In this document: piece after piece, positions 22,787 to 62,028 of the stretch
How positions within the stretch are numbered: the first letter of the stretch is position 1
Layout: each line of letters opens with the position of its first letter
From: Candidatus Woesearchaeota archaeon
Lineage (GTDB): Archaea > Nanobdellota > Nanobdellia > Pacearchaeales > GW2011-AR1
Direction: 5' to 3'
DNA: 64,000 nt
Assembly (NCBI GenBank): GCA_964412025.1
Contig: CAYPLY010000003.1
Coordinates: forward strand, 47,659-111,658
Position numbers and translations under genes: made by a program
Notes under the pieces: model-generated
What the model was told of the DNA's origin: nothing
The model's input: the letters and a program-made list of their open reading frames with translations, nothing else
Databases searched by the model: none

Positions 22787-22839
22787 AGTATCAAGTATTA
22801 TTTAAGTTTTAGCGTACTGAACAGAACATCATTGAACAG

Positions 22840-22911
22840 GGCGGATGGAGGGAATCGAACCCTCTCTATACGGACCACAACCGTATGTACTACCGTTATA
22901 CTACAACCGCC
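22840..22911 (-). tRNA. tRNA-His (anticodon GUG) with genomically encoded G-1
   Basis: Hand-folded cloverleaf: G-1 pairs with C73; 7-bp acceptor stem with one U-U mismatch; U8 and A9 present; 4-bp D stem; perfect 5-bp anticodon stem with loop UUGUGGU; T-loop TTCGATT. No CCA is encoded. Confidence 0.8.
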
Positions 22912-23003
22912 AAAATTTTGTGCGGTTATTGAAATGAACCTAAATCCACTCAAAACCACAACCTAAAATTATAAATCAGAAGACTTTTAATTCTTTTTGT
23001 TTA
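22896..23003. repeat. att repeat copy A (about 108 bp) covering the tRNA-His 5' end and upstream region
   Basis: Blocks ttatactacaaccgccaa and agacttttaattctttttgtttag, with a similar spacer (gcggttat...ccacaacctaaaa...ataaatcag), recur at 34100..34207 and partially at 34681..34767. Confidence 0.8.
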
Positions 23004-23160
23004 GTGTTTGATTTATCTTCCTATAAGTTGCTAACACCAAATTAAGAGTTTTCTTTGGATATTTCTTCCACTTTTCATATACTTGCAGTTCATTTAATCC
23101 AAATTCAATGGCATACATACACCAATCTTCTATATCTTTCTTTTTTATTTCCTTAACCAT
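22989..23160 (-). CDS. Small ORF (57 aa) overlapping the att repeat, possible excisionase-like or accessory protein
   Basis: Hand-translated as MVKEIKKKDIEDWCMYAIEFGLNELQVYEKWKKYPKKTLNLVLATYRKINQTLNKKN. Not in the ORF track because it is under 60 aa. Sits at the element edge opposite the integrase. Confidence 0.2.
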
Positions 23161-23224: not shown

Positions 23225-24319
23225 ATGGTTGAGATTATTGATTTAAGCAAAGTTGAGAATAAGATTATTTTAGGTGATTGTATTGAGGAATTAAGGAAAT
23301 TTCCAGATGAATCAATAGACCTCATTTTTGCAGACCCACCCTATTTTATGCAAACAGAAGGTGAATTAATAAGACCAGAGGGCTCAAAGTTTGCAGGAGT
23401 AGAAGATGAATGGGATAAGTTTGACGGATATAAGGAATATGACAAATTCTGCTTTGAATGGTTAAAGGAATGTAGAAGAGTGTTAAAAAAGAATGGAACT
23501 ATCTGGGTAATTGGGGCCTTCCAGAATATCTATAGAATGGGTTATATTATGCAAAATTTAGGATATTGGATATTGAATGATGTTGTTTGGTCTAAACCAA
23601 ATGCTGTTCCTAATTTTGGAGGAACAAGATTTCAAAACTCTCACGAAACCATGTTATGGTGTGCTAAAGATAAGAACTCAAAATATACTTTCAATTATAA
23701 AACCATGAAGCATTTAAATGAAGATAAGCAAGATAAGAGTGTTTGGGATATTGGAATCTGTATAGGTAATGAAAGACTAAAAGGAGAAGACGGCAAAAAG
23801 ATGCATTCTACACAAAAGCCGGAGAAATTATTGTATAAAGTGATTTTATCTTCATCTAAACCCGGAGATTTAGTTTTAGACCCGTTTTTTGGAACAGGAA
23901 CGACCGGAGCAGTTGCAAAACTTCTTGGAAGGAAGTATATTGGAATTGAAAGAGATAAAAGTTATGTTTTAATGGCTAGAGAAAGAATAAGCAAAGTAAT
24001 TCCAGATGAAAACGAGATTACAAATTTAGAGTTAGAGGTTAAACCGCCCAAAGTGCCTATGGATGATTTAATTGAAAAAGGAATGTTAAAGGTTGGAGAG
24101 ACTTTATATGATAAAACAAAAAAGCATTCAGCAAAGATATTATTAAACGGACATCTAGATAACGGAAAAGATAAATTATCCATTCATAAAATGGCTGCAA
24201 AATATTCTAAAAAAGAAAATATGAATGGTTGGGATTTTTGGTATGTTGAAAAAGACGGAGAATTAAAAAGCATAAATCAGTTAAGATATGAATATATGAA
24301 TAAATTTATAACTAACTAA
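23225..24319 (+). CDS. Type II DNA N6-adenine methyltransferase, beta class
   Basis: Motif IV DPPY (LIFADPPYFMQTEG) precedes motif I FGTGTTGAVA; this circularly permuted order is typical of beta-class amino-MTases such as M.HinfI and M.RsrI. Confidence 0.85.
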   Translation: MVEIIDLSKVENKIILGDCIEELRKFPDESIDLIFADPPYFMQTEGELIRPEGSKFAGVEDEWDKFDGYKEYDKFCFEWLKECRRVLKKNGTIWVIGAFQNIYRMGYIMQNLGYWILNDVVWSKPNAVPNFGGTRFQNSHETMLWCAKDKNSKYTFNYKTMKHLNEDKQDKSVWDIGICIGNERLKGEDGKKMHSTQKPEKLLYKVILSSSKPGDLVLDPFFGTGTTGAVAKLLGRKYIGIERDKSYVLMARERISKVIPDENEITNLELEVKPPKVPMDDLIEKGMLKVGETLYDKTKKHSAKILLNGHLDNGKDKLSIHKMAAKYSKKENMNGWDFWYVEKDGELKSINQLRYEYMNKFITN

Positions 24320-24334
24320 AACTATTGTGATTCA

Positions 24335-25195
24335 ATGGAATATAAGAGGTTTAAAGAGATATTTAATGAATGTATTTTTGAAGAATCCAAAGCCATTCTT
24401 ATAGAAAAAATATCAAAATACCCTAATAGATATATTGGTTTATTTAGACCAACAAAACCAAAAGCAAAAATCTTGCAAAATCTACTTCAATCACATGAAA
24501 TTAGATTTGGAGAAGCATTTGAGGAAGTTATAGAAGAATACCTAAAGAATTCAGGATTTAATTTATTGCCAAAAAAATATTCTAATGAAGACAACCGCGC
24601 TCTAAATATTGACCAATGCTTCAAAGATGCTAAAAATGTCTTCTTTATAGAGCAAAAAGTAAGAGATGACCATGATTCAACAAAAAAAAGAGGGCAAATA
24701 GATAATTTTGTTAAAAAATTAGAGGTTATGATAAAAGAGCATGGAGAAAAGAAGATAATAGGAATCTTTTATTTTATTGACCCGGAAATAATCAAGAATA
24801 AGAAATATTATCAAGAAGAATTAAACAAGATGCAAAAGGATTATGGTGTAAAACTATACCTCTTTTATGGAAAAGAACTTTTTGAGTTCCTAAAGATTAC
24901 AAAGGTTTGGGATGAAATACTAAAATATCTAGAAGAATGGAAAAAAGATATTCCAGACCTACCAGAGACTAACTTTGATATTGATGCTCAAAGCAGTTTT
25001 GAGGAGATTAGGGATTTAAGCCCTGCAGTTTATAGAGACTTGTTTAAAGATGATGTAATTTTTAATGACATTGTATTAACAATCTTCCCGCAAAAGAAAA
25101 CATTAAAATTGCTCTTAGAATATTTTAAATCTAAATCTAAAGAAATGGTTATTTATTCGACTCTCGCAAAAGAATTAGAGAGAAAATTGGGTTAA
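24335..25195 (+). CDS. Putative type II restriction endonuclease partner of the adjacent methyltransferase
   Basis: Starts 16 nt after the methyltransferase stop on the same strand. Possible PD-(D/E)xK core (NIDQ...FFIEQKVRD). No other motif recognised. Confidence 0.4.
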   Translation: MEYKRFKEIFNECIFEESKAILIEKISKYPNRYIGLFRPTKPKAKILQNLLQSHEIRFGEAFEEVIEEYLKNSGFNLLPKKYSNEDNRALNIDQCFKDAKNVFFIEQKVRDDHDSTKKRGQIDNFVKKLEVMIKEHGEKKIIGIFYFIDPEIIKNKKYYQEELNKMQKDYGVKLYLFYGKELFEFLKITKVWDEILKYLEEWKKDIPDLPETNFDIDAQSSFEEIRDLSPAVYRDLFKDDVIFNDIVLTIFPQKKTLKLLLEYFKSKSKEMVIYSTLAKELERKLG

Positions 25196-25309: not shown

Positions 25310-25804
25310 TCATTTTTTTAATCCCTCTATATTGTTGTTTTTATTATTTTTTAATTCAGATAACCTTTGAAATAAGCGAAGCAATTCTATTTGAACAGAT
25401 ATTTTAAACGTATGAAGCGGATTTTCACCACCCATCTTTTCTCCGTCTTTTGCTGGGTCAATATTATCTATTTGCCAGTCCATAGGTGTTTTTAACATTA
25501 ATTGTTCTATTTTCTTATCATCAATATCTATCTGATGCGCATATGCATTCCTTATTTGCCTAAGTTTATTGAGAATATTATATTCTATCTCTGAGAAGAT
25601 TTTTGTTGCCTTCAATATCTTTAATTTTATATCTTCTGAATTTATTTTATCTAATTCTGTTCCTAATTTTATCCTTAGAAATTCATTTACTAAATATTCA
25701 GAAATGATACCTAAACTTATTATTGTTTTTCTTGTATCTTTACTTTTATCAATTTCAAGAAGCATTTCTACTATATCATTATGTATTTCTTCATCCGTTT
25801 TCAT
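25310..25804 (-). CDS. HEPN-domain protein (Abi-like)
   Basis: Rx4-6H motif in LRQIRNAYAHQ within a helical protein. It is the last gene of a five-gene operon. Confidence 0.5.
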   Translation of the reverse strand: MKTDEEIHNDIVEMLLEIDKSKDTRKTIISLGIISEYLVNEFLRIKLGTELDKINSEDIKLKILKATKIFSEIEYNILNKLRQIRNAYAHQIDIDDKKIEQLMLKTPMDWQIDNIDPAKDGEKMGGENPLHTFKISVQIELLRLFQRLSELKNNKNNNIEGLKK

Positions 25805-25806
25805 TT

Positions 25807-26613
25807 TTATTCATAAAAGATTTTATTTTTATTTTTATCCCACTCTTCATCACCAAAATCGATTAAACCCAATCTCTTTAATCTTGCTTTAATCCCGCCT
25901 TCTTGTCTTTGAAACAAGACTGCAATATCTTCAATAGGAATTCCTCTGCTAAAATGCTCTTTAAGTTTTGCTTCTTCTTCAGAACTCCATTCTTGATAAG
26001 CATGAGGGCTTTCTTTTTTTATTTCTGCAATTCTACTTGCTTCCTTTTCAAAATTTACCTTTCTCTCTTTATTACTCCTCTTTGATTTTCCTTTTTTATA
26101 CCACTGCCTTGCTATACTTTCAAATAAGTCGATAACTTCTTCATTTTCAATATTAAATTTAGTCTTTAGCCATTCTCTAAGGCCAACAATCTTCAATAAA
26201 TCTTCATTATCTAAATAAAAAATATGAAAAACTTCTCTTTCATTCAGACTAACAAAAAAGACTTCTGAATGCTTGTAAATATGCAAACTGCTTAAATCTT
26301 CTTTGTTTAAAATTCCCTTTCTTCTATATTTAATTTCCATAAGATTAACACAACCTCTCTTATCGATTATTGCAAAATCTGGTAACCTTCTAATATAATC
26401 AAGTTCTACATTATCCTCTGATTTCCTATCTATTCTAAAATCTCCACCACAAGTCTTGATGAATTTCTCTATCTGAATTAAAGGTGTTGCTGTATGTTCT
26501 TGACCTATTTTAATAACAAAGAAACCTAAATTGATAAATAACTCTTCAAAAAGCATTTCGGAAATTCTGCCTTTTATTTTGCTATTGACCCAATCTTCAA
26601 CGTCATTCTTCAT
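25807..26613 (-). CDS. PD-(D/E)xK nuclease-fold protein with C-terminal helical domain
   Basis: E...PDFAIID...NLMEIKYRR fits the restriction-endonuclease-like catalytic core. There is a 2-nt gap to the downstream HEPN gene. Confidence 0.4.
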   Translation of the reverse strand: MKNDVEDWVNSKIKGRISEMLFEELFINLGFFVIKIGQEHTATPLIQIEKFIKTCGGDFRIDRKSEDNVELDYIRRLPDFAIIDKRGCVNLMEIKYRRKGILNKEDLSSLHIYKHSEVFFVSLNEREVFHIFYLDNEDLLKIVGLREWLKTKFNIENEEVIDLFESIARQWYKKGKSKRSNKERKVNFEKEASRIAEIKKESPHAYQEWSSEEEAKLKEHFSRGIPIEDIAVLFQRQEGGIKARLKRLGLIDFGDEEWDKNKNKIFYE

Positions 26614-28677: not shown

Positions 28678-28898
28678 CTCACAAACCTCCTATAAGTAAT
28701 AGGGTATAACACATTTAGAGAGGCTGTGGTCTCCGTTTTCAAAGGAAATGCCTTTGGATGCCTTGAGGTTGGGGATAATTCCATCTCCCCAGAGTAATTA
28801 CTTAAACTTACGCAACCATTTTCACTTATTTTACATGTAGAACCTATGTTAACCCATTGTCTGCCTGTAAAATCCAAAAAATTATAAGAAATTATCAT
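28674..28898 (-). CDS. Hypothetical small protein
   Basis: 74 aa. Translationally coupled on both sides. Confidence 0.3.
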   Translation of the reverse strand: MIISYNFLDFTGRQWVNIGSTCKISENGCVSLSNYSGEMELSPTSRHPKAFPLKTETTASLNVLYPITYRRFVR

Positions 28899-29398
28899 TG
28901 ACTTTCCCTCACCGGTTCAAATTTACTTAGCAATACCTTGAAACCATAACATTTCTTCCAATGCCCACACCATTCAATAGCAATTAGGTGATTTCCTGTT
29001 AAAGAATAATCAACACAACCGAGATATTCTAAAGGAACATACTTTCTTATGAATAATTTTTTGAAAGTTCTTCTTTTTTCTTCATCCAAATTTGAAATTG
29101 GAAGATTGTGAATGTGTAAATGTGGAGACTTTCCTTCATGGTCCCAAACTTCAAAGGAGATATTTGCTTTTAATAGGTTTATACCAGTGAAGTTTATTCC
29201 TTCCCATGCTTTGTTCTGGTCATCTGTATCAAATTCAATAACTATTTCATCATTTAGAATTTGTCTTAGGTTGTATTCTGGATTAAACTCTTCATAATCA
29301 ATCCATGCGGTCTTTCCAATCGCAATTTTATAATTTTGTTTCATTTTGTATTTGTCCAGCAGTTCTTTTCTCTTTTTTTCAAGGTATTTGTTATCCAT
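28895..29398 (-). CDS. Archaeo-eukaryotic primase-like primase-polymerase (PrimPol) domain protein
   Basis: EFDTDD (DxD), GKSPHLHIHN (sGxxxHxH-like) and VDYSLTGNHLIAIEW resemble AEP motifs I-III. The longest ORF starts at 29443 inside a tandem repeat; the Met at 29398 is the more likely start. Confidence 0.4.
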   Translation of the reverse strand: MDNKYLEKKRKELLDKYKMKQNYKIAIGKTAWIDYEEFNPEYNLRQILNDEIVIEFDTDDQNKAWEGINFTGINLLKANISFEVWDHEGKSPHLHIHNLPISNLDEEKRRTFKKLFIRKYVPLEYLGCVDYSLTGNHLIAIEWCGHWKKCYGFKVLLSKFEPVRESQ

Positions 29399-29497
29399 CT
29401 TAGTTAGTTTAGTTAGTTTAGTTAGTCCAATTAAACTAATCAAACTTCAGGGTGAGTTAGTTTAGTAGTTTATTATTCTATAGAATAAACTATTAAA
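29399..29497. repeat. Tandem tagttagtt-type repeats (iteron-like), candidate replication origin of the element
   Basis: cttagttagtttagttagtttagttagtcc ... gagttagtttagtagttt lies between the PrimPol-like gene and the helicase-like gene. Confidence 0.45.
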
Positions 29498-30856
29498 CTA
29501 AACCCCACCACCTTGATTTAAACTATAAACCCCCCGAATTGTTTTAGTTAGTATTCCTCTCTCTTCCAGAACCTTTAAAGCATTAAAGAAAGAGTTTTTG
29601 GGTTCTTTCTTAAAATCTTCTCTTGCTTTTTTTGTAGTAAAAGTTTCTAAATTTTCTTCTTTAATCCAAATCAATATCTTTTCAGCAATCTTTTCCTCTT
29701 TTGTTTGTGGAACGTAGACTACAGAACTAAACTTGATGAATTCTCCTTCCTTTGCTTCAATTTTTATTTGTAATGGTTCAATTTCTCGCGCATTTCTGCA
29801 TTTTAATTGCTTTAAAATTATATTATTTCCATGTTTTTCACACTTTAAGATAAAAGAAACATAGTTCGGCATATCACTTGAACCTCTTATATCATCCATT
29901 TCATCTCCAGAGTTTCCTTTCTTGTCATGGTGAATTAGAAGAATTGTTAGTTCATACTTGTCAACCAATGGTTGCAGAACGTCAATAAAGAACTTTGAAA
30001 CTTTGTCCGCACTATCTTCCTCAAAGGAGATAACTCTTCTGTAAGTATCTATAATTAGGAGTTTAGGTTTAATCTGGTCCACTATTTTCTCTAATGCGAT
30101 ATAATCTTCAACCTTATCGAGTTTTAATGGCTTAAATATAAAAGAGATGTCTAAATCTTCTTGTCTTCCTAAGCCGTTTTTAATCAAGTCTTTTCTTTCT
30201 TTGATGATTTGAAAGCCGTTTTCTCTATCTACATAAAGAACAATACTCTTTTCTGTTTGATATTTGTTAAATACTGGAAGCCCGAGGCTTACACACGTGC
30301 TAAAAAGTAAAGAAATAAAAGTTTTGAAAGAACCTCTTTTTCCTGTGAGAATTCCAATAGAACGTGCAGGAATTAAACCTTTTGCAATCCAGCCGATTTC
30401 TTTCTCCTTGTAGTTTTTCAAGTCTTTTTCCCAAACAAACTCTAAATCATTGCTTTCTTCTTCAACTTTATTGAAAAGATGAACTAATTCGGGTTTATTT
30501 TCTTTGGACCAATTAACCACCTCTCCAATATTGAAATTTTTTAATTCCCCTTTGTTCACTTTTTTAATCCAACCGAGCAAACCTCCAACCTTCCAACCTT
30601 GAGAAGCATATTTCTTCTTGATTGCCTCAATGTCAAGTTTATTTTGAACAATGTAAACAGCAAAGTTCTTTTCAAGGATTTTATTTAGTTGTCCTTCTGG
30701 AAGTTTTTCATTTAAGAAGATTTCAAAAAAGGAATTTATTCCTTCTGTTTGATTTGAATTAAAACCACTTTGAAAATTTATTTGTAGTTGTTCAGATTTT
30801 TTTAGTTCTTCATTAAATTCTTCCCAAAGGTCTAAAGGAATTTCTTGCTCATGCAT
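29498..30856 (-). CDS. RecA-fold AAA_25-like ATPase (replicative helicase or RepA-like)
   Basis: Walker A GILTGKRGSFKTF and a Walker B-like LLIIDTY...LLIHHDKKG, as in the plasmid/phage primase-associated AAA_25 family. Confidence 0.55.
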   Translation of the reverse strand: MHEQEIPLDLWEEFNEELKKSEQLQINFQSGFNSNQTEGINSFFEIFLNEKLPEGQLNKILEKNFAVYIVQNKLDIEAIKKKYASQGWKVGGLLGWIKKVNKGELKNFNIGEVVNWSKENKPELVHLFNKVEEESNDLEFVWEKDLKNYKEKEIGWIAKGLIPARSIGILTGKRGSFKTFISLLFSTCVSLGLPVFNKYQTEKSIVLYVDRENGFQIIKERKDLIKNGLGRQEDLDISFIFKPLKLDKVEDYIALEKIVDQIKPKLLIIDTYRRVISFEEDSADKVSKFFIDVLQPLVDKYELTILLIHHDKKGNSGDEMDDIRGSSDMPNYVSFILKCEKHGNNIILKQLKCRNAREIEPLQIKIEAKEGEFIKFSSVVYVPQTKEEKIAEKILIWIKEENLETFTTKKAREDFKKEPKNSFFNALKVLEERGILTKTIRGVYSLNQGGGV

Positions 30857-31107
30857 TTCCTCTCCTCCTTTGTTTTAAAATAATCTTTATTCAAAGTTAT
30901 GATATACCCTTTTTCATTAAACGGACTTTTATCATTATGACAATGCGCTATTCTATGCCCCTCTCCCAGTCCATGAAAATGATATTTTTTACAGAAATCA
31001 CAATAAAACTTCATTGCTTCATCAAAAGGGAGGTCTGTTCTCTCTTCGCATAAAATTACTGGAATATTATTTTCATATCCGAGTATTATTGTATTTTTTG
31101 AAGGCAT
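30832..31107 (-). CDS. Small Cys/His zinc-binding protein
   Basis: CDFCKKYHFHGLGEGHRIAHCHN cluster. Overlaps the helicase gene start. Confidence 0.3.
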   Translation of the reverse strand: MPSKNTIILGYENNIPVILCEERTDLPFDEAMKFYCDFCKKYHFHGLGEGHRIAHCHNDKSPFNEKGYIITLNKDYFKTKEERKCMSKKFL

Positions 31108-31287
31108 TTTAATATCCCTCCTTTATAGTTTGAATATCTTTTTTTCCAAGACTAACTCTTTTTCCAAACTTATCTTTTATTTGAAAGAAGAAATTATCTT
31201 CATCTAAAACAACACCTTCATAAACAAAATTATTTGATAGAATTATTACAACCTTTTTTCCAACCAACTCACCCATTTTAAAAAAAA

Positions 31288-32894: not shown

Positions 32895-34040
32895 TTAGAA
32901 AGTCTTTTGTTGTCCAGATATTTTAAGAGTTAAAGGTAATTGTTCAGTAGAAAACTCTCTTTGAATAAGAACTGCAATTATTTTATCCATGTCTTTTCTT
33001 AGTTCTGCATTCTCTTCTCTTATTTTTTGCATTTGTTCTTCTATCTGGTGTTTCTTCTCTGGTGTAATATCCTTGAAATCATATACTTGTTTTCTCAAGA
33101 TTTTAGTTTTATCCTCTTTACTCATATGAGAATAAACTTTGTCAAACATCTTCTCAGAATGTCTCATGAAACTTATTGCATTATCCTTGCTCATAACATT
33201 TTGTTTGACTAATCTCTGCAATTCTGTTCCTCTCGTGTGCCTTAACAAATAGTTATATTTTGGTTTTCCTAAAACTTTTAATGTTATCTCGTTAAATCTA
33301 TCATTAACTCGCTTTGAAATATACTCGTTTGTATTTTGCGGAGAAGGAAAAACCCACTTTGAAACTATCCCTTCACTTTTTTGTTGCTCTCTGAGTTTTC
33401 TCAAATACTTAGTTGCTAAGTTCAAAGGAATTTCTTCAGTGTGTTCTGTTGCATCTCGGTTCTTCTTAGATGAAACTTTGATATTGCAAAACTCTTCATC
33501 TTCTTCAAAAAAAACATCACTCCACTTTAAACGCCTACATTCACCAGTTCGCAAACCTCCTTCGTATTGGGTGATGAAAAAACATTGATAAAACAAACTC
33601 TTTTCTGCTATCATCAGTTTTTCAATATCTTCTTTCTTTAGAATATCCTCTGAGGTTATCTCTTTCTTTCTCTGAGCATTTGAATTGAAATGTAAGTCTT
33701 CAAGATTGTTAAAGAGTTCACTCCAATTCTTAAACTTCCATTTAATAAACTGCTGAAGATATGCTTTAATTTTATTCTTCGTAAAATCTGCAAATGTAGA
33801 GAGTTTTAACTCTTTCAAGAAATATCTTAAATCTTCTAAATCAAAATCATTAATCTCTTTTCCAGTAACCACTCTAAACCTTAAGATTTCTCGAACTGCT
33901 TCCTTTGTTCTTTCTTCACTTGCAGAAATAAGCAGATAGTCTTTAAACCGCTCAAGAACCTCTTTCTCTTCCCTTGAGAGATGTCTATAGAGTTTCTCTG
34001 AGGTTTTCTCCTTGCTGAATTCAAAAATGGGTTTTCTCAT
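32895..34040 (-). CDS. Tyrosine recombinase / integrase
   Basis: The C-terminal catalytic domain has R (TGECRRLKWSDV), HxxR (LLRHTRGTE) and the Tyr region (KVYSHMS). The N-terminus beyond the Met at 34040 runs into the att repeat and is probably not translated. Confidence 0.8.
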   Translation of the reverse strand: MRKPIFEFSKEKTSEKLYRHLSREEKEVLERFKDYLLISASEERTKEAVREILRFRVVTGKEINDFDLEDLRYFLKELKLSTFADFTKNKIKAYLQQFIKWKFKNWSELFNNLEDLHFNSNAQRKKEITSEDILKKEDIEKLMIAEKSLFYQCFFITQYEGGLRTGECRRLKWSDVFFEEDEEFCNIKVSSKKNRDATEHTEEIPLNLATKYLRKLREQQKSEGIVSKWVFPSPQNTNEYISKRVNDRFNEITLKVLGKPKYNYLLRHTRGTELQRLVKQNVMSKDNAISFMRHSEKMFDKVYSHMSKEDKTKILRKQVYDFKDITPEKKHQIEEQMQKIREENAELRKDMDKIIAVLIQREFSTEQLPLTLKISGQQKTF

Positions 34041-34099
34041 GTCCGGCCCAGCAAGTAACCCTTTAAAAGCATATCTATAACCGCACAATAAAACTACAA

Positions 34100-34207
34100 T
34101 TATACTACAACCGCCAATATTAATGACGCGGTTATAAAAGCAGACTAATCTGCTCAAACCACAACCTAAAAGCATAAATCAGTAGACTTTTAATTCTTTT
34201 TGTTTAG
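34100..34207. repeat. att repeat copy B
   Basis: Same two conserved blocks and a similar spacer as copy A. Confidence 0.8.
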
Positions 34208-34661
34208 CTTTTTCTTCTTTATTTACTTCATTTTCCCACTCAATATCTCCCCTAATAATCTCCTCTAAGAAATCATATAAATTATCACAAGCAAGTTTAT
34301 AATCTTCACAATCGGGGTTTACCTCAAATATATTACACCATCCATTTTTATCCTTAGAAGACAAATTTAGAGATAGAATAAAGTCATCATATCTGCTAAT
34401 AACTAAAAAACTCTTATCTCTTTCAAGACTTCTAATAAAGTTTGTTTCTTCAATAATTTCCTTAATAGAAAGAATATCAAAATCAGAATTAAACAAGTTT
34501 AATTTATAATTAGTAAGATAAATCATAAATTCTTCTGGAAGAGTTATCTTAAGTTTATTTTCTAACAAATCAATATCCCCTTTTGATATTGAATTAGAAT
34601 AAGATATTTTGTTGGGATACAATTTAATTAGTTTATCAAATTCTTGTTTAATATATTTCAT
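34179..34661 (-). CDS. SMI1/KNR4 (SUKH-1)-like immunity protein
   Basis: 160 aa. The LPEEFMIYLTNY motif and overall SUKH-like pattern match this family. It is the only gene between att copies B and C. Confidence 0.4.
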   Translation of the reverse strand: MKYIKQEFDKLIKLYPNKISYSNSISKGDIDLLENKLKITLPEEFMIYLTNYKLNLFNSDFDILSIKEIIEETNFIRSLERDKSFLVISRYDDFILSLNLSSKDKNGWCNIFEVNPDCEDYKLACDNLYDFLEEIIRGDIEWENEVNKEEKAKQKELKVY

Positions 34662-34680
34662 TTTCTAATCCTCCACAATA

Positions 34681-34767
34681 ATACTACAACCGCCAATATA
34701 TGTTCCGATTATGTATTTTTCAGAACTAGAATTACTAAATTAGAAGACTTTTAATTCTTTTTGTTTA
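34681..34767. repeat. att repeat copy C (partial)
   Basis: atactacaaccgccaatat ... agacttttaattctttttgttta; the spacer diverges from copies A and B. Confidence 0.7.
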
Positions 34768-34768
34768 C

Positions 34769-35353
34769 TCAAAAACTAAGACTGCTTGAGCTAGAACAAA
34801 TTTCCGGATTTCCTTCTTCATCCAAAAAATAAACAACAACGTCAACTTTGTTAGGATTTTCCAAATCTTCTTCAGGAATACTTACTCTTATCGTTTCTTC
34901 AAAGATATCTCCAGGAGCATCATAAAAATACTTCCCATTTTCATCATTGCTAAATATCATCTTAACCCCTCCAATTGTATAATCATTTATTCCAGATATC
35001 CTTGAGAGAGTAACATCAAAAACTTCGGGCATTGTTTTTGAAACTTCTGTGGGCATAACTTTTAAACTAATACACCTTTCATGCAAATTTGGGAGACTTC
35101 CCCCTCCTTCATTAACAGTATTTCTAATCCCTATCCAGGCAATACCTATAAGAATCATTAATATAAAGAAAAGGAAGAAAATGCTTCCAATAACAATGGA
35201 AACAATTGCCATCCACTCTCCTTTTTCATGGGTCTTCTTTATTTGAGAAAGAGAAATTATTCCTAAGATAAATCCAACGGGAAAAAATAAAAATGTAAAT
35301 ACAAGTGCTAATATAGCTAAAGTATTATATCTATTCTCCTCTCCCATAACCAA
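34769..35353 (-). CDS. Membrane-anchored secreted protein, pilin-like paralog family member
   Basis: N-terminal hydrophobic helices, then the C-terminal block VFDVTLSRISG...GGVKMIFSNDE...VDVVVYFLDEEGNPEIC shared with 39265..39741 and 20769..21701. Confidence 0.45.
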   Translation of the reverse strand: MVMGEENRYNTLAILALVFTFLFFPVGFILGIISLSQIKKTHEKGEWMAIVSIVIGSIFFLFFILMILIGIAWIGIRNTVNEGGGSLPNLHERCISLKVMPTEVSKTMPEVFDVTLSRISGINDYTIGGVKMIFSNDENGKYFYDAPGDIFEETIRVSIPEEDLENPNKVDVVVYFLDEEGNPEICSSSSSLSF

Positions 35354-60138: not shown

Positions 60139-62028
60139 ATGACAGACAAAAAAGATTACAACGCAAATGATATCAAGGTTTTGGAAGGCCTGGAAGGAGT
60201 TAGGAAGAGACCCGCCATGTACATTGGTTCAACCGGAAAAGAAGGATTACATCATCTCGTTTATGAAGTAGTAGATAATTCAGTTGATGAAGCTCTAGCA
60301 GGTTTTTGTACAAAAATAAAAGTAACCTTGAATAAAGACGGTTCTGTTACAGTGGAAGATGATGGTAGGGGAATACCTGTTGACCCACATCCAACCTATA
60401 AAGTTCCTGCAGCACAAATAGCACTCACAAAATTGCATGCGGGAGGAAAATTTGATAAAAAATCATATGCAATATCGGGAGGGTTACATGGGGTAGGGGT
60501 TTCCTGTGTAAATGCTTTATCAAAAAAACTAATTCTTGAGATAAAACGGGATGGCAAAGTGTATCAACAGGAATATTCTAGGGGAGATCCTACAACAAAG
60601 ATGAAAGTAATAGGAAACTCAACAGGAACAGGTACAAAAATAACTTTCTACCCTGATGAACAAATATTTTCCACAGTTACATTTGATTTTAAAACATTAG
60701 AAACAAGATTTAGAGAAATAACTTTCCTTAACGCAGGTTTAAAGATAGATTTAAGAGATGAGATAAAAGACACAAACCAAGAGTTTTTCTCAAGTGGGGG
60801 ACTTATGGAATTTGTAAAATGGATAAACAAAACTAAAGAGGTGTTGCATAAACCAATTTATTTTAAAAGAGAGATGAATAATGGTTCAATAGAAATTTCG
60901 ATACAATATAATACAACCTATCAGGAAAACATTTTTGGTTTTGTTAACACTATTAACACCGTGGAAGGAGGAACACATATATCTGGATTTAAAACGGCAT
61001 TAACAAGAGTAATAAATGACTACGCAAAGAAAAAAGACATTCTAAAAAACGATTCTTTTTCAGGGGATGATGTTCGTGAAGGATTAACTGCAATTGTAAG
61101 TATAAAATTATCGGATCCTCAATTTGAAGGACAAACAAAAACAAAATTAGGTAATTCAGAAATCAAAGGATTCGTTGATTCAATTGTAACTTCTGCTCTA
61201 ACAGAATTTTTTGAGGAAAATCCACAGATAGCAAAAAAAATAGCAGATAAATCTATGGAAGCCGCAAAGGCACGTTTGGCAGCAAAAAAAGCTAAGGATT
61301 TGGTAAGAAGAAAAAATGCCTTCTCTCTTGGAGGATTACCTGGAAAACTTGCAGATTGTTCAAATAAAAAATCAGAAGAAACAGAGTTATACTTAGTTGA
61401 AGGAGAGAGTGCAGGGGGTTCAGCAAAAATGGCAAGAAATAAAGAGATCCAAGCAATACTTCCATTAAGAGGTAAAATATTAAATGTTGAAAAAGCAAAC
61501 CCATCAAAAGTTCTATCGAGTGAAGAGATAACAAATATGATTACAGTAATCGGAACTGGGATAGGAGAACAATTTGATGCAACAAAGATAAGATATAATA
61601 AAATAATACTAATGACAGATGCAGATGTTGATGGAGAACATATAAACACTCTTCTTTTAACATTCTTTTTTAGATTCATGCCCCAGCTCATTGAGAACGG
61701 GTATATCTATGCTGCAATGCCTCCCTTATACAGAATAAGAAAAGGACAAAAAGATGTATACGTTTATACAGATGAAGAACTAAAGAAAGTAACAAGCGAA
61801 TTGGGTGTTAATGAAGGGGGGGTTACAAGATTTAAGGGATTAGGAGAGATGAACTCAACACAATTATGGGAAACTACTATGAATCCCAAAACAAGAAAAG
61901 TAAAGAAAATATATATAGAAGATGCTATTGAAGCAGACAGAGTATTTACAATGTTAATGGGAGATGATGTTCAAGCAAGAAAAGATTTCATTCAAGAAAA
62001 TGCACATGAGGCAAATCTTGATATTTAA
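60139..62028 (+). CDS. gyrB: DNA gyrase subunit B
   Basis: GHKL ATPase motifs (VYEVVDNSVDEALAGF, DDGRGIP, GGLHGVG) and the Toprim region (EGESAGGSA, DADVDGEHI). Confidence 0.95.
   Translation: MTDKKDYNANDIKVLEGLEGVRKRPAMYIGSTGKEGLHHLVYEVVDNSVDEALAGFCTKIKVTLNKDGSVTVEDDGRGIPVDPHPTYKVPAAQIALTKLHAGGKFDKKSYAISGGLHGVGVSCVNALSKKLILEIKRDGKVYQQEYSRGDPTTKMKVIGNSTGTGTKITFYPDEQIFSTVTFDFKTLETRFREITFLNAGLKIDLRDEIKDTNQEFFSSGGLMEFVKWINKTKEVLHKPIYFKREMNNGSIEISIQYNTTYQENIFGFVNTINTVEGGTHISGFKTALTRVINDYAKKKDILKNDSFSGDDVREGLTAIVSIKLSDPQFEGQTKTKLGNSEIKGFVDSIVTSALTEFFEENPQIAKKIADKSMEAAKARLAAKKAKDLVRRKNAFSLGGLPGKLADCSNKKSEETELYLVEGESAGGSAKMARNKEIQAILPLRGKILNVEKANPSKVLSSEEITNMITVIGTGIGEQFDATKIRYNKIILMTDADVDGEHINTLLLTFFFRFMPQLIENGYIYAAMPPLYRIRKGQKDVYVYTDEELKKVTSELGVNEGGVTRFKGLGEMNSTQLWETTMNPKTRKVKKIYIEDAIEADRVFTMLMGDDVQARKDFIQENAHEANLDI

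Follow-up and report, generated by a model that had tools for sequence, protein, structure and literature searches.

The locus examined here raises the question of how a small integrated element in an archaeal genome might copy itself, and in particular whether two adjacent genes and the short, repeat-rich spacer between them make up its replication machinery. The locus lies in a 64,000-nt stretch of contig CAYPLY010000003.1 (hereafter the window, meaning the whole stretch of DNA that was analysed), which holds a ~11.2-kb mobile element, at ~22.9-34.2 kb, integrated at tRNA-His in a small archaeal genome. Within the element, the genes for a 452-aa RepA-like predicted helicase and a 167-aa candidate archaeo-eukaryotic primase (AEP) follow each other on the minus strand. 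We consider it fairly probable that the two genes and their spacer form the replication module of the element, in which the helicase would also act as the origin-recognising initiator and the AEP would prime while docked on the N-terminal domain of the helicase; the origin function of the repeats and autonomous (plasmid) replication are the parts of this reading that we infer from the sequence. For comparison, 91 related loci were gathered in all, and 29 close relatives were compared in detail.

Searches with the product of the AEP gene (28895..29398, minus strand), as a single sequence or as a profile, against Pfam, PHROGs, and the PDB returned nothing significant (no Pfam family at E <= 1, no PDB match, and a sole PHROG 'DNA primase' hint at E 0.25), and its identity was resolved by structure prediction only. 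Foldseek comparison with viral models returned primases of nucleocytoplasmic large DNA viruses, baculovirus LEF-1, and phage primases. The features that define the AEP superfamily, namely the catalytic fold, an acidic pair in motif I (DxD or ExD), a histidine in motif II, and an aspartate in motif III, are all present: E55-x-D57 in IVIEFDTDD (29219-29245), S91-P92-H93 in GKSPHLHIHN (29105-29134), and D130 in VDYSLTGNH (28988-29014), all on the minus strand, are invariant in 106 homologous sequences, and their order and spacing, by which we assigned the active-site residues rather than by residue-by-residue superposition, match those described for AEP motifs I-III (PMC5862659). In its 167 aa the protein holds the AEP catalytic domain and nothing else. 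The original prediction for this DNA had called the small protein AEP-like from these same motifs, and both fold and motifs bear it out; its narrower label, PrimPol-like, has no specific support, and we rejected the Prim-Pol family (PF09250, the pRN1 ORF904 type) because its Pfam model has no match and the structural similarity is weak. An exhaustive profile search recovered 600 cluster representatives of the AEP clade (E <= 1e-3), in which motif II retains its histidine; no Pfam AEP model covers the clade, and its members are therefore annotated as hypothetical at present. Many of them are 600-870 aa long, with the AEP at the N terminus, PriCT_1 or a CHC2 zinc ribbon in second place, and D5_N/DUF5906 or AAA_25 after it, an arrangement that is canonical for primase-helicases of mobile genetic elements (MGEs).

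The 452-aa product of the upstream gene (29498..30856, minus strand) matches PF13481 (AAA_25) at E 1.8e-24 (86.9 bits against a cut-off of 27; residues 137-315, 29912..30448) as well as PHROG primase/helicase families, and it carries on the same strand a deviant, family-conserved P-loop as Walker A (GKRGSFKT, 30320-30343), a Walker B motif (LLIIDTY, 30041-30061), and an RGSSD motif (29873-29887). Both marks of an AAA_25/RepA-like RecA-fold helicase, a PF13481 score above the gathering threshold and Walker A/B motifs, are present. A profile of its relatives matches one solved protein only, RSF1010 RepA (1g8y), at E 2.6e-4, and relatives 45-48% identical over the helicase core bear an N-terminal Prim-Pol domain (PF09250) and a CHC2 zinc ribbon. 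These matches agree with the earlier proposal of an AAA_25/RepA-type protein and identify it as a predicted helicase of that type. The C-terminal 70 residues (29501..29704, minus strand) are a probable winged-helix DNA-binding domain, and AAGGAGGAG stands upstream of the start codon as a Shine-Dalgarno-like sequence. That primase and helicase belong together in one module, as had also been suggested, is supported by their relatives: synteny of the genes for integrase, AAA_25 helicase, and AEP is seen in L001, L002, L028, and L041, the first two of which have the gene order of the window (integrase, AAA_25 helicase, AEP), and the AEP and helicase form a conserved pair in related elements, joined into a single fused protein in some relatives.

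The division of labour between the two proteins becomes apparent through comparison with more distant AEP relatives, many of which are single chains of ~300 aa with a ~130-aa C-terminal extension. The helicase of the window begins with an all-helical domain (~residues 1-130; 30467..30856, minus strand; eight helices in an AlphaFold2 model with a predicted local distance difference test score of 74.6) that has no Pfam match. When a profile of this domain (27 sequences) was compared by hhalign with a profile of the AEP C-terminal extensions (59 sequences), the two matched with a probability of 97.5% (E 6.2e-12) over 122 columns, against 0.6% for an AEP core profile and 0.2% for a reversed target. 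The profiles thus indicate homology between the N-terminal domain of the helicase and the domain that comes right after the AEP in single-chain relatives; the primase would therefore be split here, with the post-AEP domain attached to the helicase, where it would serve as a primase accessory domain. The relationship is visible to profile-profile comparison only: pairwise BLASTP of the N-terminal domain against a single 306-aa relative found nothing, and neither did hhalign against the PriCT/zinc middle regions of fused relatives, a negative that is weak since the target profile is heterogeneous. IMG/VR contigs L008-L011 (42-46 kb), classed as viral, encode ~300-aa AEP relatives with the accessory domain in cis, and the family therefore also serves viruses, presumably those of DPANN hosts.

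The same N-terminal domain is the sole part common (50-61% identity) to two classes of protein whose genes immediately precede that of the AEP: class A, the AAA_25 helicases, and class B, proteins of 510-670 aa without a recognisable domain. As an aside, the class B proteins (P0163-P0168, from loci L003, L017, L024, L030, L032, L034, and L038; no Pfam domain) have a conserved YPTGxxKGN motif and a G-x-H-x-S-K-V-W-L motif near the C terminus, and they may be an undescribed initiator or ATPase. As for what the accessory domain might do, the catalytic domains of pRN1 ORF904 (PMC2965215) and of RSF1010 RepB', which primes on the inverted repeats ssiA/ssiB (PMC8567376), both require a helix-bundle domain for dinucleotide synthesis; because of this requirement, the 167-aa AEP would by analogy have to dock on the helicase in order to prime.

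Between the two genes lies an origin-like spacer of 99 bp (29399..29497, minus strand). The tandem repeats that had been reported across this interval are real, but the perfect array, three copies of TTAGTTAGT (ACTAACTAA in gene sense; period 9, 3.0 copies, and 100% matches by TRF; minus strand), adjoins the AEP ATG and covers 29400..29426 only, and the remainder holds inverted copies of the array motif that make up two hairpin-forming inverted repeats. Inverted repeat 1 (29457..29501) has 18-nt arms (29457-29474 and 29484-29501) that are 94% complementary across a 9-nt spacer, and overlaps the helicase stop codon; in inverted repeat 2 (29406..29446; 18-nt arms at 29406-29423 and 29429-29446, 83% complementary), the direct array pairs with an upstream inverted copy. 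The spacer also has an AT-rich dyad centre, TTCTATAGAA, and an outlying copy of the motif (29538..29552, minus strand) lies inside the 3' coding end of the helicase gene, where it encodes ILTKT. The clustering is strong relative to the rest of the window: 7-mer repeat coverage in the 270 nt upstream of the AEP start is 90 nt against a mean of 8.8, the highest of 1405 control windows over the 64 kb; the 15-mer ACTAACTAAACTAAC occurs 10 times with <=3 mismatches against 3.8 expected, a count that 0 of 100 shuffles reach, and its two exact copies both lie at 29403-29426; and the density of TTAGTT/AACTAA is maximal at the spacer, with 8 per 150 bp compared with 90 in the whole window. Clustered short direct repeats beside a putative initiator gene, the mark of an iteron-type origin, are present in this arrangement. 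Three other identities for the repeats were rejected: attP, as the att sites lie at the ends of the element; a centromere, as the element has no ParA/ParB gene; and a CRISPR-like array, as the units are too short and have no spacers.

The inverted repeats could also act at the RNA level, as intercistronic mRNA hairpins that influence termination, stability, processing, or the helicase:primase translation ratio. The spacer strand is indeed predicted to form two stable hairpins (z = -5.4), and the site falls between two co-oriented genes of a tight operon. Such hairpins, however, would need neither the internal 9-bp periodicity nor the 3+3 arrays 70-100 nt apart that are seen in relatives; moreover, no U-tract terminator was found on the gene strand (in a scan for sigma-70 promoters and intrinsic terminators that is uninformative for an archaeon), and the sole Rfam matches in the window were the tRNA and a miRNA-like hairpin due to chance, with no family for the spacer. 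We regard an RNA-level role as quite unlikely to account for the site.

Among the 29 close relatives, short repeats in both orientations are almost always found in the 60-250 nt before the AEP core, and in most of them (~two thirds) the DNA upstream of the AEP gene ranks with the windows of highest repeat density in the locus. The usual order is an array of three copies, a 70-100-bp spacer, and three more copies in inverted orientation, while an alternative layout consists of a large palindrome and then a direct array adjoining the start; among neighbouring units of the same orientation, 32 have a spacing of 9 bp and 13 a spacing of 8 bp. The repeat cores are specific to each element (AGGGTG/CACCCT, GTGGTA/TACCAC, TGATGAAT, TAAACCAAT (in L002), and ACGTTA in relatives; ACTAA in the window), and this variation is what would be expected of a replicon-specific recognition site. 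The most informative loci are those in which AEP and helicase are fused (L060, L004/L044, L006, and L064), where the densest repeat cluster coincides with the 3' end of the gene or follows it closely, at least ~1.8 kb away from the 5' end of the AEP. The cluster there consists of 3+3 inverted 9-mers, which in L006 and L064 flank a TATATA-type centre. It is thus with the helicase/winged-helix end of the module that the arrays go. Of the original picture of iterons between a primase and a helicase, the repeats stand and their architecture is conserved, but what they follow is the 3' end of the gene for the helicase and winged helix rather than a gap between primase and helicase as such, and their units are inverted and of 8-9 bp rather than iterons of 17-22 bp. 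L060 has the window's TAAACTAA core together with a KNSF.. helix in its C-terminal domain similar to the predicted recognition helix of the window (KNSFFNALKVL), a correspondence of two loci only and hence anecdotal.

The position of the arrays in the fusions also bears on the possibility that the repeats are an operator or copy-control site, where the winged helix of the helicase, or else one of the element's small upstream proteins, would bind and so repress or tune AEP expression. In the window the array adjoins the ATG, a TATA-like TTTAAT can be read from the sequence ~34 nt upstream of it with the 3x9 array between box and start codon, and iteron-like sites of plasmids often double as autoregulatory operators. 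In the fusions, on the other hand, no AEP start lies near the arrays, which keep their place at the gene's 3' end; this favours an origin over an AEP operator, and the class A AEP is translationally coupled to the helicase, leaving no room for a separate promoter. An operator alone therefore seems to us unlikely, although the two functions are not mutually exclusive.

Whether the repeats are simply coding sequence needs separate consideration. The longest AEP open reading frame (ORF) in the window starts at a TTG at 29443, which adds MISLIGLTKLTKLTK to the protein and is itself preceded, two codons earlier, by an in-frame TGA; the first ATG of the frame is at 29398, the upstream frame is interrupted by an in-frame TAA and TGA, and a coupling ATG is absent. 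The helicase and AEP of the window share a reading frame and are separated only by TAG, TAA, and TGA. The N-terminal extension had been dismissed as artefactual, which holds for the window, even if the TTG might still serve as a start, but does not hold in any of the seven class A relatives: in all of them the first ATG of the AEP frame overlaps the helicase stop by 3-22 nt, usually after a G-rich Shine-Dalgarno-like run, and the frame is open across the repeats for 10-56 codons. To judge from these frames, the repeats are almost certainly translated in the seven. In the class B loci, L006, and L064, the arrays fall within the C-terminal tail of the upstream or fused ORF.

These frames, in which class A AEP ORFs begin at the helicase stop and class B arrays sit in an upstream tail, together with a period of 9 that is a multiple of 3, are what would be expected if the repeats were low-complexity coding sequence and nothing more, a variable N-terminal tail of the AEP or C-terminal tail of the upstream protein with no function in cis. 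Coding does not explain arrays in reverse complement, however. The encoded tails are conserved neither in sequence nor in length, with stops within 0-9 codons of the AEP core in many relatives and the TAA and TGA of the window; a period of 8 is also common; and the arrays of L060 are clearly non-coding. In phage lambda, moreover, the origin iterons lie inside gene O, so that coding and origin functions can coexist. We find a purely coding explanation very improbable. The original prediction was to fall if the repeats proved to be part of a conserved longer protein, and here the outcome is divided: the repeats are coding in relatives, but the extension is not conserved and the inverted symmetry at the DNA level remains. 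The comparison shows a real cis element that in some relatives is embedded in coding sequence.

The element itself is bounded by ~120-bp direct repeats of 90-91% identity: attL (22889..23009), which consists of the 5' part of tRNA-His (22839..22910, minus strand) and its upstream region, and attR (34093..34212), a duplicate of both that lies beside a tyrosine integrase gene (32895..34175, minus strand; PF00589, E 3.3e-11). Integrase and flanking direct repeats at a tRNA gene, the hallmarks of a tyrosine-recombinase-type integrated element, are both found, and of the earlier idea of a self-replicating plasmid that had integrated, the integration is now documented, whereas plasmid replication is a proposal to be weighed below. 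The true start of the integrase is probably M46 (MRKPIFEF...), because the first 45 codons of its longest ORF overlap attR and the duplicated tRNA fragment. Thermosome and Dph2 genes flank the element in the window, giving it an archaeal neighbourhood, and the relatives come from metagenome-assembled genomes of Pacearchaeota, Woesearchaeota, and Nanoarchaeia as well as some viral contigs; on these grounds the host is probably a DPANN archaeon.

The gene content of the element leaves room for a further explanation, in which the AEP-helicase pair works in repair, defence, or DNA mobilisation rather than in replication of the element. Besides the module, the element encodes a RAMA-domain N6_N4 DNA methylase with a 286-aa ORF of no family (possibly a restriction partner) after it, a weak HEPN-like ORF on the opposite strand, an HNH protein, and an Sm-like protein, with no recognisable capsid gene among its ORFs. 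Precedent exists among MGE-borne primase-polymerases, some of which act outside replication, such as the Ppol of Thermus ICETh2 (PMC7693054). The pair is nevertheless conserved beside integrases, in small elements whose gene content includes no further replication gene, and members of the family are fused to PriCT or a zinc ribbon and a helicase, like known MGE replicases (PMC5862659). We consider a non-replicative role the least credible of the explanations weighed here.

If the locus is a replication module, the helicase would bind the repeat arrays, probably through its C-terminal winged helix, and assemble at the AT-rich dyad, around which the inverted arrays would orient two helicase assemblies. 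The helicase would unwind the DNA, and the AEP would dock on its N-terminal accessory domain, which would do for it what a helix-bundle domain does in pRN1 ORF904 or RSF1010 RepB'. The AEP would then lay primers, possibly on hairpins extruded from the two strands, in the manner of RepB' on ssiA/ssiB, and these primers would be extended by a host polymerase or by the AEP itself. We put forward more tentatively, as a plausible but somewhat doubtful extension, an obligately coupled 'split primosome': the 167-aa AEP, among the smallest, would be inactive alone and prime only when docked on the helical domain of the helicase; the origin would be the paired inverted 9-bp arrays, translated in many relatives; and the whole would represent an undescribed AEP clade and a replicon type widespread in DPANN elements.

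Several observations weigh against reading the locus as a replication module. The firing of the origin is deduced from sequence. The size (~17-22 bp) and helical phasing of classical iterons are not seen, as the units are 8-9 bp apart, and L012, L032, and L041 have no clear repeats upstream of the AEP. AT-rich or TATA-type dyad centres are seen in the window, L031, L001, L006, and L064, but against a background of 30% GC. The winged helix, in the window and in relatives, is drawn from sub-threshold matches only (DEK_C, AbiEi_4, MCM_C, TrmB, PadR, and WHD_MCM8). The AEP ATG of the window has no Shine-Dalgarno-like sequence and the translational coupling of its relatives is lost, and the window copy of the module may be derived or decaying. 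Finally, no circular relative was found, and related contigs examined end to end have no terminal overlaps; GC skew was left unused, as coding-strand bias dominates the signal.

Other features of the region are recorded for completeness. The methylase, the 286-aa ORF, and the HEPN-like ORF are cargo of the element, at 23225-25195 and 25310-25804, and a 268-aa ORF (25807-26613, minus strand) without a Pfam match has 60 C-terminal residues that match PHROG 323 ('transcriptional regulator, D5-like', E 2e-7). Upstream of the helicase lie a 55-aa Sm/LSM-like ORF (31109-31276, minus strand; Pfam LSM, E 0.037), with a similarly positioned ORF of faint LSM match in L002 (5491-5670), and a 91-aa Cys/His-rich ORF (30832-31107, minus strand) that shares 25 nt with the start of the helicase gene. 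In L001 and L002 this position is taken by small zinc-binding ORFs (with a weak HNH_5 match in L002); we left them out of the module, as the three versions give no convincing alignment. About 570 bp past attR is a third, degenerate copy of the att/tRNA-His 5' sequence (34672-34773; 70-76% identity), which may be what is left of an earlier or tandem integration into this tRNA gene, and between the two lies an ORF of 160 aa of the SUKH/SMI1_KNR4 family (34179-34661). A full-length DNA gyrase B gene (60139-62028) is present in the otherwise archaeal chromosome.

The logic of a primase, a helicase, and repeats in an integrated element is already well known. What is new here is an AEP clade without a curated model, the distribution of catalytic and accessory primase domains over two genes, an origin-like layout of inverted 9-mers that is often translated, and a DPANN host range; our literature search found no description of this AEP-helicase family. 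The mobile elements of DPANN archaea are almost uncharacterised, and the module, as a compact replicon candidate of ~2 kb comprising two proteins and a cis site of ~150 bp, could be a starting point for genetic tools in uncultivated, reduced archaea. The split is also a natural experiment on the dependence of AEPs on helical accessory domains (of the PriL/PriX/PriCT/helix-bundle type) and on the coupling of priming to unwinding.

Four known systems help to place the module. Like the class A and class B relatives, L006, and L064, the origin in gene O of phage lambda has its repeats inside a translated replication gene; unlike the module, it has four direct iterons of 18-19 bp bound by the O protein, and no homology is implied. 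The IncQ plasmid RSF1010 is comparable in its working, with a RepA helicase, the AEP-like primase RepB', and an oriV that has iterons and the inverted ssiA/ssiB hairpins. Proteins like RepA and of the RepB' fold are present in the module, but no RepC-like iteron-binding initiator occurs among the ORFs of the element, so that the full set of three IncQ proteins is lacking and the probable winged helix of the helicase would replace RepC; the accessory helical domain is on the helicase instead of the primase, the repeat units are of 8-9 bp and not ~20 bp, the host is archaeal, and sequence similarity is very low. For want of RepC and of repeat units of the right size, we rejected an IncQ replicon. 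The Sulfolobus plasmid pRN1 is closer in host: its ORF904 is an archaeal MGE replicase that joins AEP, helix-bundle domain, helicase, and winged helix, as the module would, and its origin is a stem-loop immediately downstream of the orf904 primase-helicase gene (PMC4234260), just as the repeats and hairpins of the module lie at the 3' end of the helicase gene. The broadest comparison is with the MGE primase-helicases of the PrimPol-PV1 supergroup described by Kazlauskas et al. 2018, in which an AEP is joined to PriCT-1/2 or a Zn-binding domain, an ATPase of RepA, DnaB, D5, VirE, or DUF927 type, and a winged helix, and which occur in integrated elements (PMC5862659). Compared by architecture rather than family by family, the module follows the same logic with the same partner domains, and distant members of its AEP family have exactly such architectures; the window differs in that its module is split, with the AEP standing alone and the accessory domain on the N terminus of the helicase.

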